NCBI RefSeq assembly: GCF_053078305.1 | Contig: NZ_CP166879.1 | Length of the DNA stretch: 64,000 bases | Reading direction: 5' to 3' (one strand) | In this document: piece after piece, positions 55,276-59,360 of the stretch | Layout of the letters: every line of letters starts with the position of its first letter | Numbering within the stretch: the first letter of the stretch is position 1 | Notes under the pieces: generated by a model | The model's database searches: none | The model's input: only the letters and a program-made list of their open reading frames with translations | Told to the model about the DNA's origin: nothing | Translations under genes and position numbers: made by a program

Positions 55276-58176
55276 ATGCTGCCAGACCAGCGACCAGCGA
55301 CCAGCGACCAGCGACCAGCGACCAGCGACCAGCGACCAGCGACCAGCGACCAGCGACCAGCGACCAGCGACCAGCGACCAGCGACCAGCGACCAGCGACC
55401 AGCGACCAGCGACCAGCGACCAGCGACCAGCGACCAGCGACCAGCGACCAGCGACCAGCGACCAGCGACCAGCGACCAGCGACCAGCGACCAGCGACCAG
55501 CGACCAGCGACCAGCGACCAGCGACCAGCGACCAGCGACCAGCGACCAGCGACCAGCGACCAGCGACCAGCGACCAGCGACCAGCGACCAGCGACCAGCG
55601 ACCAGCGACCAGCGACCAGCGACCAGCGACCAGCGACCAGCGACCAGCGACCAGCGACCAGCGACCAGCGACCAGCGACCAGCGACCAGCGACCAGCGAC
55701 CAGCGACCAGCGACCAGCGACCAGCGACCAGCGACCAGCGACCAGCGACCAGCGACCAGCGACCAGCGACCAGCGACCAGCGACCAGCGACCAGCGACCA
55801 GCGACCAGCGACCAGCGACCAGCGACCAGCGACCAGCGACCAGCGACCAGCGACCAGCGACCAGCGACCAGCGACCAGCGACCAGCGACCAGCGACCAGC
55901 GACCAGCGACCAGCGACCAGCGACCAGCGACCAGCGACCAGCGACCAGCGACCAGCGACCAGCGACCAGCGACCAGCGACCAGCGACCAGCGACCAGCGA
56001 CCAGCGACCAGCGACCAGCGACCAGCGACCAGCGACCAGCGACCAGCGACCAGCGACCAGCGACCAGCGACCAGCGACCAGCGACCAGCGACCAGCGACC
56101 AGCGACCAGCGACCAGCGACCAGCGACCGTAAATCAAGAAAGTCTGTAAAATCTGTTGAACCAGACATTGCCGACCGGGCTAACAGCTGGCTCAAATCTT
56201 ATGGACTTGATTACAAACTGGAGCAGGCACCACTTAACAACGAGATCGATAACGCACTGGATGCTTATTTTTCGAAAAATGGCGGCGCAGGCGGTAATCG
56301 TCCCGACGTAAAACTCCTTGTTCAGGACAAATACGGCAAGCAGTATCCCGTTCTCATCGAGTATAAAGGCTACAAGGACAGGCTTATCAGACTTGGCAGC
56401 AACGGTATTATTGAGAACAAAGATGCCAGAAAAGAATGGAATTTTAAAAATATTAATGGATACGCGGTGAATGGCGCAGTCCATTATGCCAACGCACTTC
56501 TTCAGTTCACCAATTACCCTGATATTATTGCTATTGGTATGACCGGCTGGCGCGATGATGATACAGGCGAACTGCATCATGAAATCGGCGTGTGGTACGT
56601 ATCAAAGAATAATTTAGGAGCCGGGCAGAAGGTTGGTGAATTCACCGACTTATCATTCCTTGCTGACAAAAATGTTGATGGATTTCTCAACAAGATAAAG
56701 CTGCTTAATCTTCCTCCCGAAGAACTGGAAAAAATCAAGGCCAGCAAAGAGGAAGAGATAGACACGCGACTTTCCCGTCTGAATAACGATATTTACCAGA
56801 ATGAAAAGGGGCTTGGTGAAAGCGATCGTGTTTACCTTGTTGTGGCTACCGTTATTGCAACGTTGGGGATTCCGGGAAAGTTAGCACCGCTGGATAAAAA
56901 AGAACTGACCTCTTCAACGGAGGAGGACTTGCGTGATGGTGATATTATTTTCAGGAAAATAAGGAATTTTTTAAGGCTGAAAGCTGTTCCTGAAACAAAA
57001 AGAGAAATGATTTTGCGCTCGTTGCAAAATACGCTGTGGACTGAAAACATTAACAAACCAGTCAACGGTGAAAGCCAGTTAAAGCGCGTGTTTGTTAAAG
57101 TTGTTGATGATCTTGGGGAGTATTACAAAATCGGACTGACCACCGATTTTACGGGCAAACTGTTTAATGAGATGTATCGCTGGCTTGGATTTACGCAGGA
57201 CAAACTCAATGACGTCGTTCTGACACCACCTTATGTTGCCACATTGCTGGCACGACTCGCCAGAGTAAACAAAGATTCCTATGTGTGGGATTTTGCTACA
57301 GGTTCTGCGGGATTGCTTGTGGCTGCAATGAATGAAATGCTCATTGACGCCAGAGAAAATATTCACTCACCGAATGAACTACAACTTAAGGAAGCGCAAA
57401 TCAAGGCTGAACAGCTTCTTGGCCTTGAGGTGTTATCCAGTATTTATATGCTGGCCATCCTGAATATGATTTTGATGGGGGATGGTAGCTCGAATATCCT
57501 CAATAAAGACTCGCTAGCCGATTTTGACGGCAAGTATGGATTTGGGAAAACAGGAGAAAAATTCCCTGCGGACGCATTTATTCTCAATCCTCCGTATTCA
57601 GCTAAAGGTAACGGCATGATTTTCGTGCAGAAGGCGCTGTCGATGATGGATAAAGGCTATGCTGCAGTGATTATCCAGAGTTCAGCCGGCACAGGAAAGG
57701 CTACGGAGTACAACAAAAAAATACTCAAGGAAAATACCTTGCTGGCAAGCATCAAAATGCCTGCGGATCTGTTTATTGGTAAATCAAGCGTTCAGACGTA
57801 CATTTACGTTTTTCAGGTAAAAATTCCGCATAACGCGAAACAGGCTGTTAAGTTTATCGACTTTTCCAATGACGGCTATGCTCGCTCTAATCGCAAAAAG
57901 GCAAGAAACAATCTTGTTGATGCCGATCGTGCAAAAGAGCGTTATCAGGAGGTTGTGGATCTGGTTCACTTCGGGAAAGGTTGCCTTAATATCTTTACGG
58001 AGGATGAATATTTTGAGGGAACAATCGATCCTGATAGTGGTGAGGACTGGAATCAGACTAGGCCAGTAGATACCAGACCGACACTGGAGGATTTTAAAAA
58101 GACGGTTGGCGACTATCTTGCGTGGGAGGTGTCAAAACTTCTTCAGGGGCGTGATGCGTCAGAAAAAAAGCAGTAA
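55276..58176 (+). CDS. gamma-class N6-adenine DNA methyltransferase with N-terminal DQRPATS repeat domain and candidate PD-(D/E)xK nuclease module (BcgI-A-like / HsdM-like)
   Basis: 966-aa frame; ATG at 55276 with an AGGA RBS. Motif X/I ...VVLTPPYVATLLARL...VWDFATGSAGLLVAA; motif IV FILNPPYS. Between the repeat and the MTase: RPDVKLLVQDKYGKQYPVLIEYKGYK. Contains the 120 x 7-nt repeat in frame. Confidence 0.8.
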   Translation: MLPDQRPATSDQRPATSDQRPATSDQRPATSDQRPATSDQRPATSDQRPATSDQRPATSDQRPATSDQRPATSDQRPATSDQRPATSDQRPATSDQRPATSDQRPATSDQRPATSDQRPATSDQRPATSDQRPATSDQRPATSDQRPATSDQRPATSDQRPATSDQRPATSDQRPATSDQRPATSDQRPATSDQRPATSDQRPATSDQRPATSDQRPATSDQRPATSDQRPATSDQRPATSDQRPATSDQRPATSDQRPATSDQRPATSDQRPATSDQRPATSDRKSRKSVKSVEPDIADRANSWLKSYGLDYKLEQAPLNNEIDNALDAYFSKNGGAGGNRPDVKLLVQDKYGKQYPVLIEYKGYKDRLIRLGSNGIIENKDARKEWNFKNINGYAVNGAVHYANALLQFTNYPDIIAIGMTGWRDDDTGELHHEIGVWYVSKNNLGAGQKVGEFTDLSFLADKNVDGFLNKIKLLNLPPEELEKIKASKEEEIDTRLSRLNNDIYQNEKGLGESDRVYLVVATVIATLGIPGKLAPLDKKELTSSTEEDLRDGDIIFRKIRNFLRLKAVPETKREMILRSLQNTLWTENINKPVNGESQLKRVFVKVVDDLGEYYKIGLTTDFTGKLFNEMYRWLGFTQDKLNDVVLTPPYVATLLARLARVNKDSYVWDFATGSAGLLVAAMNEMLIDARENIHSPNELQLKEAQIKAEQLLGLEVLSSIYMLAILNMILMGDGSSNILNKDSLADFDGKYGFGKTGEKFPADAFILNPPYSAKGNGMIFVQKALSMMDKGYAAVIIQSSAGTGKATEYNKKILKENTLLASIKMPADLFIGKSSVQTYIYVFQVKIPHNAKQAVKFIDFSNDGYARSNRKKARNNLVDADRAKERYQEVVDLVHFGKGCLNIFTEDEYFEGTIDPDSGEDWNQTRPVDTRPTLEDFKKTVGDYLAWEVSKLLQGRDASEKKQ
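55288..56127 (+). repeat. perfect heptanucleotide tandem repeat (CAGCGAC) x 120, 840 bp
   Basis: Read directly: 840 nt of uninterrupted CAGCGAC units beginning 12 nt after the MTase ATG; translated in frame as 40 x DQRPATS. Confidence 0.97.
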
Positions 58177-58250
58177 ACTCCCGTCTTGCAGAGCTTGAGC
58201 GGGAGTTTATTAAATCTGGTGGTAAATGGGAAGAATACACAATCGAAAGA

Positions 58251-59360
58251 TTGTTCAGTATTCAGACACCTAAAAAGAAATTTAATGCCAATAAATTAAC
58301 ATTTAATGGCAACTATCCTTATGTTGCCAGAGGAAGTAACAATAACGGCATAAAAGGATATATAGATGAAGATGAATTATATCTCAACCCGGGGAATACA
58401 ATTAGCTTTGGTCAGGATACTGCGACTATGTTCTATCAGGAAAACGCATATTTCACAGGTGATAAAATAAAGATTTTTTCTCTCAGGCATGGAGAGTTAA
58501 ATTCGCGAATTGCTTTTTTTCTTATATCAGCAATGAAAAAATCTTTTTCAACGTTTAGTTGGGGGAGTAGCTCTTTTAATGAGAATGTTCTCAATAAGGT
58601 AAAGATAAATATACCTACGTTTAATAATGTTCCTGCATATAATTATATGGTAAAGTATATAGAAGAGCTGGAAGCGGCCCATATAGAAGAGCTGGAAGCG
58701 GCCCATATAGAAGAGCTGGAAGCATACCTGATAGCTGCTGGGCTGAGTGATTACCAACTAACGGAAAAAGATTATCTTATCCTGGAACATTTTAAAAATA
58801 TTGAATTTTCAGGCTTTCCTGTTACTGAGTTATTCTCAGTGTGCAATACAGGAAACATATTGTCTAGAGACATCATAGAAAATAGTGGGGATGTTCCTTA
58901 TCTTTGTGCTAGCCGTGAGAATAACTCTGTTAGTTCTTATATCGCCTATGATAACTCACTCTTGGAAAAAGGGAACTGTATTTTTATTGGTGGTAAGACA
59001 TTCGTTGTAACTTATCAGGAGCGAGACTTTTTTTCAAACGACAGTCATAATTTGCGACTCTATGTTAACAATGAGGATGGAAGGACAAAGTTTGCTTATT
59101 TGGGCATTATTTCATGTATTTATAGATCTATTTCACATAAATATTCATGGGGGGATAGTGTTAGTAATAGAAAAATTAAGAACGATGTTGTTTGGTTGCC
59201 AGTAAAAAATAAGTCACCTGACTTTTGTTATATAAATGACCTTATTTCAGTTGTTCATAAGCTTGTCATTAAAGATGTTGTCCAGTACGCAGAACGCAAA
59301 ATGAACGCATACAGGCAAGCTATAACAAGTCGCGGTTATGATGATTCTGGTGTCAGTTAA
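58251..59360 (+). CDS. restriction-modification specificity subunit (HsdS/BcgI-B-like, two target-recognition domains)
   Basis: Two TRD-like halves separated by a coiled-coil spacer with tandem IEELEAAH repeats. ORF-track start is TTG 58251, but the frame is open upstream to 58155 and encodes HsdS-like N-terminal residues (KSGGKWEEYTIERLF) with no canonical start. Confidence 0.7.
   Translation: MFSIQTPKKKFNANKLTFNGNYPYVARGSNNNGIKGYIDEDELYLNPGNTISFGQDTATMFYQENAYFTGDKIKIFSLRHGELNSRIAFFLISAMKKSFSTFSWGSSSFNENVLNKVKINIPTFNNVPAYNYMVKYIEELEAAHIEELEAAHIEELEAYLIAAGLSDYQLTEKDYLILEHFKNIEFSGFPVTELFSVCNTGNILSRDIIENSGDVPYLCASRENNSVSSYIAYDNSLLEKGNCIFIGGKTFVVTYQERDFFSNDSHNLRLYVNNEDGRTKFAYLGIISCIYRSISHKYSWGDSVSNRKIKNDVVWLPVKNKSPDFCYINDLISVVHKLVIKDVVQYAERKMNAYRQAITSRGYDDSGVS
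58659..58724 (+). repeat. 2.75 copies of a 24-bp tandem repeat (ATAGAAGAGCTGGAAGCGGCCCAT) in the S-subunit central spacer
   Basis: Read directly; encodes IEELEAAH IEELEAAH IEELEA. Confidence 0.9.

Follow-up and report, generated by a model that had tools for sequence, protein, structure and literature searches.

Type IIB restriction-modification (RM) enzymes such as BcgI and BsaXI are assembled from two RM subunits and one specificity (S) subunit (2RM:1S; PMC3874165, PMC11997821), and cleavage by DNA-bound BcgI requires additional protomers or free A subunit, an excess of free A activating it (PMC3592470). The arrangement of single-chain enzymes, one RM with two target recognition domains (1RM:2TRD), has been termed a 'mechanistic mystery' by Loenen et al. 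(PMC3874165). Here, we analyzed a 64,000-nucleotide (nt) stretch (the window) of contig NZ_CP166879.1 from the RefSeq assembly GCF_053078305.1, in which the late region of a lambdoid prophage carries a two-gene cassette, gene A and gene S. We propose, at a probability of roughly 0.6, that this cassette encodes a BcgI/BsaXI-type (Type IIB) RM enzyme under the control of two devices, a heptanucleotide repeat acting as a switch within gene A and a -1 frameshift between A and S. The evidence is computational throughout and consists of sequence features, their conservation, polymorphism and covariation.

Gene A is an open reading frame (ORF) in which a leader and a long repeat precede a body of 683 codons (Table 1), close to the approximately 680 aa that an earlier note on this DNA, made by a model from the sequence and its translated ORFs, had given for the part after the repeat. 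The motifs quoted there (RPDVKLLVQD, LIEYKGYK, TPPYVATLL, DFATGSAGLL and NPPYS) are all present in the gene A translation. A profile search, proposed in that note as a check, matched the body essentially end to end (residues 6-673) to the PADLOC Type IIG/IIB model REase_MTase_IIG (PDLC03616, E 4.8e-234) and also to the 637-position PADLOC RM model PDLC03602 (E 7.8e-45). In Pfam, the body matched N6_Mtase at residues 358-608 and, weakly, VRR_NUC at residues 25-87, and in NCBIfam only sub-threshold matches to HsdM and MAD2 were found for gene A. The enzyme family is already known, being modelled in PADLOC, and the phage record PV340552 names a homologue 'BcgI alpha chain-like'.

A sequence search of gene A against PDB chains gave no match, and a profile search against the PDB matched BsaXI in the methylase part only. 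Since neither search reached the nuclease region, structure prediction was needed for this domain. An AlphaFold2 model of the body, built from 42 homologues with a predicted local distance difference test score of 86.7, had BsaXI as its top Foldseek match (671 columns), followed by Type I HsdM subunits, DrdV, BpuSI and LlaBIII, and the N-terminal domain of the model matched PD-(D/E)xK nucleases. Furthermore, residues E11, D60, E78 and K80 are invariant in family alignments down to 25-30% identity. This putative catalytic set parallels E73/D90/E105/K107 of BsaXI, which were needed for cleavage in mutagenesis and are described as conserved across Type IIB enzymes (PMC11997821); the nuclease motif of BcgI has been given as PE-X12-ExK (PMC9159934). 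On the strength of the BsaXI-like model and the invariant residues, the PD-(D/E)xK signature that the earlier note had only tentatively recognized is real at the level of fold and conserved residues. Together, these data indicate that gene A encodes, as predicted from sequence and model, one polypeptide with a PD-(D/E)xK-type nuclease and a gamma-class N6-adenine methyltransferase, as in Type IIB enzymes, and with homology to characterised Type IIB RM subunits detectable through PADLOC and the Foldseek match to BsaXI.

The same residues bear on whether the locus could be a methylation-only epigenetic switch (phasevarion), in which the nuclease domain is inactive and the repeat toggles the methylome, altering host or phage gene expression. 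Phase-variable methyltransferases of Haemophilus and Neisseria commonly work in this way, a phase-variable Type IIG enzyme of Campylobacter alters methylation and expression (PMC5909438, PMC4889913), and such a switch would involve no self-restriction when turned from OFF to ON. We regard this explanation as quite improbable, given four residues invariant to such low identity, a confidently predicted nuclease fold and BsaXI equivalents that are essential for cleavage; the two roles are in any case not mutually exclusive.

In addition to gene A, the cassette encodes S, in which two Methylase_S domains (Pfam, residues 8-149 and 189-318) flank a repeated IEELEAAH helix, bearing out the two recognition-like halves around a coiled-coil spacer that had been described for it. 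S matched the 341-position PADLOC model Specificity_II (PDLC03591) with an E value of 1.3e-18. The lengths of this profile and of the 637-position RM profile equal the sizes of the BcgI subunits, and the direct relation to BcgI rests on these profiles. As had been observed before, no HsdR was found among the large ORFs of the window (yfaL, nrdA, gyrA, rcsC and a phage helicase), nor was any found beside the cassette in relatives. These sequence features point to a two-TRD specificity moiety of the Type I kind with conserved helical regions, the gene for which follows that of RM, in a system that has no HsdR motor.

The S frame is -1 relative to gene A, whose end in the window reads …GAA AAA AAG CAG TAA and contains the candidate slippery heptamer A_AAA_AAG. 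The -1 frame encodes conserved S sequence (AVNSRLAELEREFIKSGGKWEEYTIERLF…) well ahead of the first start codon, and the conserved peptide begins right after the heptamer. The first canonical S start, a TTG at 58251, would yield only 369 aa (58251-59360, +) and lose 27 conserved N-terminal residues. We compared this junction across 26 viral and 80 genomic loci from many phyla, with RM proteins 60-73% identical; 78 of the genomic loci were analysable, and the loci are phylogenetically related, so that the counts are not independent. S was in the -1 frame in 72 of these 78. The seven bases before the stop were GGGAAAA in 41 loci, GGGAAAG in 17 and AAAAAAR in 3; a few loci had the heptamer one codon earlier, as in the window, and one had A_AAT_TTT. 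In all 68 canonical loci the Gly codon of the heptamer was GGA, against a background use of 30%, and the codon before it ended in G (68/68, against 16%), though it encodes L, E, S, K, M, Q or P. Moreover, the S frame lacked any ATG, GTG or TTG before a conserved Trp in 35 of the 68, and where starts exist in this frame their positions are inconsistent among loci. The heptamer was also considered as a Shine-Dalgarno sequence for S and rejected, as its GGGA lies only 3 nt from the ATG where one is present and most loci have no ATG. Four metagenome-assembled genomes (MAGs) of Selenomonadales and Bacteroidales (L112, L114, L115 and L118) have no canonical heptamer; their gene A frame continues through the usual linker, and the frame changes later, at G_AAA_AAT or AAG AAC GAT TGA, just before the VEWGE codons.

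The heptamer is followed by a hairpin, with a minimum free energy of -20.3 kcal/mol (z -4.7) in the window. An 85%-identical allele (L007) has the same heptamer and stem with a different loop, and in the commonest E. coli allele GCG GGA AAG TAA is followed after 6 nt by a 9-13-bp stem (-23.3 kcal/mol, z -8.1). Of five junctions that were folded, four gave -17.6 to -23.3 kcal/mol with z -3.9 to -8.1, and the fifth (L036) gave -18.2 kcal/mol with z -1.5. In a gapless alignment of 74 distinct junctions, assessed with slid controls and 500 shuffles, a 12-bp stem starting 5-6 nt past the heptamer was 95.6% paired, compared with 33-48% for the slid positions, and none of the 500 shuffles matched the observed value on four of five measures. 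Compensatory, double-sided changes were found at four stem pairs; at pair 21-43 (U-A 32, C-G 21, U-G 15), the third base of a Leu codon, a synonymous position, changes in concert with the first position of the E/K/Q codon that precedes the Trp. RNAalifold independently found the core stem. The 3' arm also codes for the VxWG motif, and the protein accounts for part of the conservation there. With Rfam gathering thresholds over 54000-64000, no match was obtained at the A/S junction, indicating that the hairpin belongs to none of the curated families.

Natural fusions of RM and S in a single frame are common among the more distant homologues, and P0122, P0148, P0150, P0130 and P0135 are fusions of this kind; in P0122 (983 aa, 70% identity), RM and S are joined by a homologous linker (…LSDKLKSVKWE…). 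A heptamer conserved beyond the needs of the protein, a covarying hairpin, a -1 ORF without a conserved start and in-frame fusions together form the sequence signature of programmed -1 frameshifting, by which S is predicted to be made.

At the other end of gene A, the repeat, named only in passing by the earlier note, is a perfect GACCAGC array of 120.6 units. It occupies codons 4-284, is about 70% G+C and has no T on the + strand. The encoded peptide (PATSDQR)n is identical in all three frames, and the exit frame alone varies. Apart from the ATG at 55276, the gene A frame has no canonical start ahead of codon 421 (IGMTGW), and no in-frame ATG, GTG or TTG occurs in the 137 codons between the end of the repeat and this first internal Met; the conserved N-terminal domain is therefore translatable only by reading through the repeat. 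The window is in the ON state, with the body in frame with the good ATG, which a Shine-Dalgarno sequence precedes. An antisense ORF over the repeat (55176-56195, -), annotated in RefSeq as 'YXWGXW repeat-containing protein' or 'hypothetical protein', was rejected because the repeat frames are all open by construction.

Across 30 E. coli loci, the tract varied from 16 to 120 copies between conserved flanks (…AAAAGGATGATTTTATGCTGCCA, then repeat, then body). In 6 loci, the window among them, the body was in the frame of the good ATG; in 11 it shared a frame with a second start, and in 13 its frame had no start. This second start is an ATG 8 nt upstream of the good ATG in most alleles, or a GTG 47 nt upstream; the corresponding codon in the window is ATA (55268-55270), and that frame keeps only the GTG (55229-55231), which has no Shine-Dalgarno sequence. 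The occurrence of two ATGs in two frames before the repeat in most alleles (AAAAGGATGATTTTATG) suggests three expression levels. The 683-codon body was intact in 30 of 30 loci, whatever the frame of the repeat, and 13 of the first 20 loci encoded an identical body protein with 31-99 units. Isolates from the same study differed in units (83 in G6/7, 99 and ON in G8, about 93 in G1/2), as did those of O111:H8 (56, 58 and 83) and OkiPb (22, 19 and 23). Repeat lengths were taken from assemblies, and short-read contigs collapse the tract, e.g. to 3 copies in L027 and L049. A unit that is not a multiple of three placed between start and body, copy-number polymorphism and an otherwise intact gene are, at the level of sequence, the characteristics of a contingency locus. 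MutS recognises loops of 7-8 nt poorly, which would explain instability of the units in mismatch-repair-proficient E. coli.

Homologues outside E. coli and Salmonella (e.g. in Neisseria and Providencia) have no repeat, and a Met directly precedes their conserved KSVEP segment. One metagenomic prophage carries a single degenerate unit (MLPNQRPTNKSRK…), a plausible precursor of the tract. Of 27 IMG/VR contigs containing this repeat, about 19 share the leader and the gene, and many contigs stop inside the repeat. In unrelated viral contigs of the same database (L142, L145 and L148), (GACCAGC)9-12 was found with quite different flanks (…tgtgggcgaagc, then repeat, then accagcaccagc…).

Gene S also contains a repeat of variable length. 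The IEELEAAH unit is present three times in the window and twice (L001, L028) or four times (L027, L138) in otherwise identical S alleles; alleles with another TRD1 have two or three units. A change in copy number would probably alter the spacer length of the recognition site, by analogy with EcoR124I/II. Similar spacer repeats were seen elsewhere, ELEAERIT occurring twice in Providencia and L040 and L041 differing by one unit. In relatives (L005, L006, L024, L027, L034, L036, L049 and L137-L140), S contains a second simple sequence repeat, the octanucleotide (GCGGACTC)n in 4-28 copies, between the coiled coil and TRD2; it is absent from the window, where S reads YLIAAGLSDY (around 58730). With copy numbers that are multiples of three (6, 9, 18), TRD2 is in frame, and other counts truncate S to a half-subunit with one TRD, which would change specificity.

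The octanucleotide is also pertinent to the idea that the cassette is a decaying remnant, in which a former RM gene was put out of action by a selfish or neutral hypermutable repeat and the features of the junction survive as relics. As many as 24 of the 30 loci are out of frame with the good ATG, RefSeq annotates truncated genes, and S is truncated in L005, L024 and L027. The truncations of S are explained by the 8-bp repeat, whose copy number sets the frame; the body remains intact in every locus, and the flanks ATGCTGCCA and the start of the body are conserved. We consider decay very improbable.

Based on these features, we infer the following sequence of events. Gain or loss of units in the 7-bp tract by replication slippage would move the body among three frames, one read from the good ATG (ON, as in the window), one served by a poor upstream start only and one with no start (OFF). 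Most ribosomes translating gene A would terminate and release free RM subunit. At A_AAA_AAG, a fraction would move back by one base, with the hairpin that follows aiding the shift, and would read on in the S frame to make an RM-S fusion of 965 + 396 = 1361 aa in the window. RM and RM-S may then assemble into a 2RM:1S unit, leaving a surplus of free RM. The pairing of one RM with one RM-S alongside this surplus agrees both with the 2RM:1S stoichiometry and with the requirement of BcgI for extra protomers or free A. As no ribosome would reach S other than by translating A, the single 7-bp tract would switch the whole system.

We further hypothesize, and give it an even chance, that the whole horizontally widespread BcgI-like Type IIB clade (Proteobacteria, Firmicutes, Bacteroidota, Actinomycetota, Spirochaetota, Campylobacterota and phages) makes its recognition module only as a C-terminal extension of RM through a conserved -1 frameshift (G_GGA_AAR or A_AAA_AAG plus hairpin), the efficiency of which sets the RM:S ratio, and that E. 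coli prophages, including Shiga-toxin (Stx) phages, have gained up to three repeat devices: the 7-bp on/off tract, the 8-bp S-truncating tract and the 24-bp spacer repeat.

Several observations weigh against the proposed frameshift and switch. In about 10 of the 74 aligned junctions, the stop of gene A is a TGA that overlaps an ATG (AAAATGA). Near the S start of Neisseria-type loci there is an in-frame ATG, five codons ahead of the conserved Trp, and the window itself has the TTG at 58251; in some relatives, S is possibly initiated independently or by re-initiation. In addition, BcgI and BsaXI function with separately expressed subunits (PMC9159934). All this would suit an ordinary two-subunit BcgI-like system in which S is translated separately, from the TTG or by termination-reinitiation, and the heptamer and hairpin serve translational coupling or mRNA stability. 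This alternative is unlikely in our view. Half of the canonical loci (35/68) offer it no canonical start, the starts that exist are inconsistently placed, and, read in the gene A frame, the conserved element has the X_XXY_YYZ pattern whatever amino acids it encodes. A stable hairpin directly at a start codon would be an obstacle to initiation, but stimulators classically lie where this one does, 6 nt past a slippery site. The -1 frame peptide is conserved immediately after the heptamer, and in-frame fusions with the same linker exist. Separate translation thus leaves the nucleotide-level conservation of the heptamer, the position of the hairpin and the start-less loci unexplained.

For the repeat switch, copy numbers of 0.1-0.8-kb repeats in assemblies may be incorrect, each assembly is a population consensus, and the strong-ON frame occurs in just 6 of the 30 loci. 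A restriction enzyme turned from OFF to ON in a cell with unmethylated DNA should be harmful. Finally, no cassette-specific promoter was found by consensus scan, and expression may fall in the lysogen or late in the lytic cycle.

The host DNA of the window is E. coli chromosome (yfaL, nrdA, gyrA, rcsC), with the lambdoid prophage beginning at about 41.5 kb. The gene order is Q, a promoter-like site, hok/sok, the RM cassette, a terminator-like hairpin, STnc100, a SASA-type esterase, holin and lysozyme; both ORFs of the cassette thus stand between Q and the esterase and lysis genes as originally described. The sigma-70-like site just after Q sits where a lambdoid late promoter would be and, by its position, is a candidate source of the cassette transcript; no promoter-like site was found by consensus scan between 54970 and 55300. 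The hok/sok toxin-antitoxin module (54776-55094; Rfam sok, 97.6 bits) lies between Q and the cassette. Its hok frame is broken in the window by one extra base after MKQQKAMLI, and RefSeq flags hok as 'frameshifted' in several close relatives too. A full-length match to the sRNA family STnc100 (167.6 bits, 59719-59930) lies between the cassette and the esterase gene; sok and STnc100 were the only Rfam matches in the interval searched. ARAGORN found no tRNA in the window, indicating that the Stx-phage tRNA cluster of relatives is absent here.

Of 5426 complete E. coli genomes, 29 carry the cassette, as does one phage record, and its position in the prophage is the same every time. In several carriers, the tRNA-stx region of Stx1c, Stx2b and Stx2a/c/d-type phages begins shortly after it. 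The repeat-less Providencia homologues occupy the same prophage position, and the homologous system of Neisseria lactamica is chromosomal; the Neisseria clade is 73% identical. RM proteins 63-73% identical (L052-L131, from a scan of genome contigs) were seen in Firmicutes, Bacteroidota, Proteobacteria, Actinomycetota, Spirochaetota, Campylobacterota and one DPANN archaeal MAG. Such identity across phyla implies, judged from sequence, extensive recent horizontal transfer of an RM subunit that is itself strongly conserved but is combined with S modules that vary widely.

Table 1. Positions of the cassette, its elements and its neighbours in the window
Feature	Position	Strand	Remarks
Gene A (RM subunit), ORF of 966 aa/codons	55276-58176	+	ATG to TAA; leader and repeat 283 aa, in frame with the 683-codon body
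Heptanucleotide simple sequence repeat (GACCAGC)x120.6	55285-56128	+	Tandem Repeats Finder (TRF): period 7, 100% matches, score 1688
Slippery heptamer A_AAA_AAG (candidate)	58164..58170	+	Gene A frame (GAA AAA AAG); two codons before TAA 58174-58176
Hairpin downstream of heptamer	58172..58211	+	Core ACTCCCG (58177-58183) / CGGGAGT (58200-58206)
Gene S reading frame	58170..59360	+	-1 relative to gene A; 396-aa C-terminal extension if frameshifted; frame open from 58155
PD-(D/E)xK nuclease domain, N-terminal (predicted)	56128..56712	+	Body residues 1-195
Putative catalytic residues E11, D60, E78, K80	D60 56305-56307; E78 56359-56361; K80 56365-56367	+
Gamma-class N6-adenine methyltransferase domain (predicted)	57199..57951	+	Body residues 358-608; includes DFATGSAG and NPPY (57586-57597)
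24-bp tandem repeat x2.8 (IEELEAAH)	58657..58723	+	Central coiled-coil spacer of S; TRF
Shine-Dalgarno AAGGA	55264-55268	+	7 nt upstream of ATG 55276-55278; read from sequence
Antiterminator Q ORF	54296-54745		Upstream of cassette
Candidate sigma-70-like promoter, TTGAAA-16-TAGAAT	54742..54769	+	Consensus scan, 10/12 matches; just after Q
Intrinsic-terminator-like hairpin and T-run	59426..59445	+	Consensus scan; 66 nt past the S stop; function putative
SASA-type esterase ORF	60034-62055		Downstream of cassette, followed by holin and lysozyme

The two features also account for how these loci are annotated. In RefSeq records of L001-L019, gene A is started at an internal TTG, GTG or Met, and some records lose the nuclease domain; such N-terminally truncated RM genes are named only 'HsdM family methyltransferase', which hides the nuclease. 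S genes of the clade are routinely mis-started or called pseudogenes, and in these records S is often divided into a pseudogene and a fragment. The RefSeq description of S as two pseudogene pieces was considered as a real disruption and rejected, the S frame being intact in those loci. The mis-starts, the antisense ORF and the split S are annotation artefacts of the two recoding features. The tracts also break short-read assemblies, and many database entries of the gene are 'partial' or end inside the repeat.

We found no description of the heptamer tract, of phase variation of this E. coli prophage gene or of RM frameshifting in the literature covered, subscription journals and REBASE lying mostly outside it. 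RM systems are not mentioned in the accessible part of a large recoding review, nor in the GeneTack survey or a 2025 frameshifting preprint, and Escherichia is absent from a survey that covers repeats of Type I systems (PMC7383803). If true, the clade-wide frameshift would be, as far as we found, the first recoding event described in an RM system, and restriction enzymes would join the few cellular genes of bacteria in which programmed frameshifting is used. It would offer a simple genetic answer to the problem of matching two RM to one two-TRD S and of supplying extra free RM. The 7-bp tract suggests that temperate phages of E. coli, including Stx1 and Stx2 phages, carry a contingency locus of a kind thought typical of small-genome pathogens, with very long tracts, and it could create subpopulations of lysogens that differ in phage resistance, DNA uptake and methylome. 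The BcgI-like module put forward in the earlier note thus stands in part: the Type IIB family and the nuclease fold are supported, and what it missed are the frame-setting repeat and the -1 junction of S.

Compared with described systems, the cassette is most like BcgI of Bacillus coagulans, the Type IIB prototype, and NgoAVIII, sharing with them an RM protein with an N-terminal PD-(D/E)xK-type nuclease and a gamma-class N6-adenine methylase, a Type I-like S with two TRDs, the order RM then S, the lack of an HsdR motor and an expected 2RM:1S composition (PMC3874165, PMC3592470). BcgI consists of two independent polypeptides; here, by contrast, a putative frameshift cassette precedes S, which is in the -1 frame, and a repeat that sets the frame lies within gene A. 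BsaXI (Type IIB; cryo-EM structures 8w0p, 8w2p and 8w2q) is only 15-19% identical to this enzyme; its RM of 911-916 aa has 'knob' and 'paddle' insertions, unlike the RM described here, and its S (476 aa) is a separate gene product that was expressed separately (PMC9159934). In the single-chain Type IIB/IIG enzymes AloI, CjeI, PpiI and TstI, R, M and S lie in one chain with two TRDs, which is the architecture of the predicted frameshift product and of the in-frame fusions P0122, P0148 and P0150. However, those enzymes are constitutive fusions with 1RM:2TRD, whereas here fusion and free RM made from one mRNA would restore 2RM:1S.

In its repeat, gene A resembles the mod genes of Haemophilus and Neisseria and the Type IIG gene cj0031 of Campylobacter, in which a repeat with a unit that is not a multiple of three lies in the 5' part of the ORF, with polymorphic copy numbers and in-frame and out-of-frame states. 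Start codons in two frames ahead of a repeat, as in most alleles here, also occur in the lic loci of Haemophilus. The unit here is 7 bp, and with up to 120 copies (840 bp) the tracts far exceed the more than 30 copies cited for the Haemophilus mod gene (PMC3711429). Moreover, in contrast to those phase-variable RM genes, the host is E. coli, the carrier is a temperate phage (Stx phages included) and the enzyme is Type IIB. The variation of IEELEAAH between two, three and four copies is like that of the short in-frame coiled-coil repeat in HsdS of EcoR124I and EcoR124II, with a unit of 8 aa here and 4 aa there; in EcoR124I/II, this variation changes the spacer of the bipartite site. Finally, the heptamer A_AAA_AAG of the window is identical in sequence and frame to the shift site of E. 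coli dnaX. As in dnaX, a hairpin lies a few nucleotides downstream and the two products predicted from one mRNA share their N-terminal part, but the shifted product of dnaX is the shorter one, whereas here the shift would add a whole specificity module.

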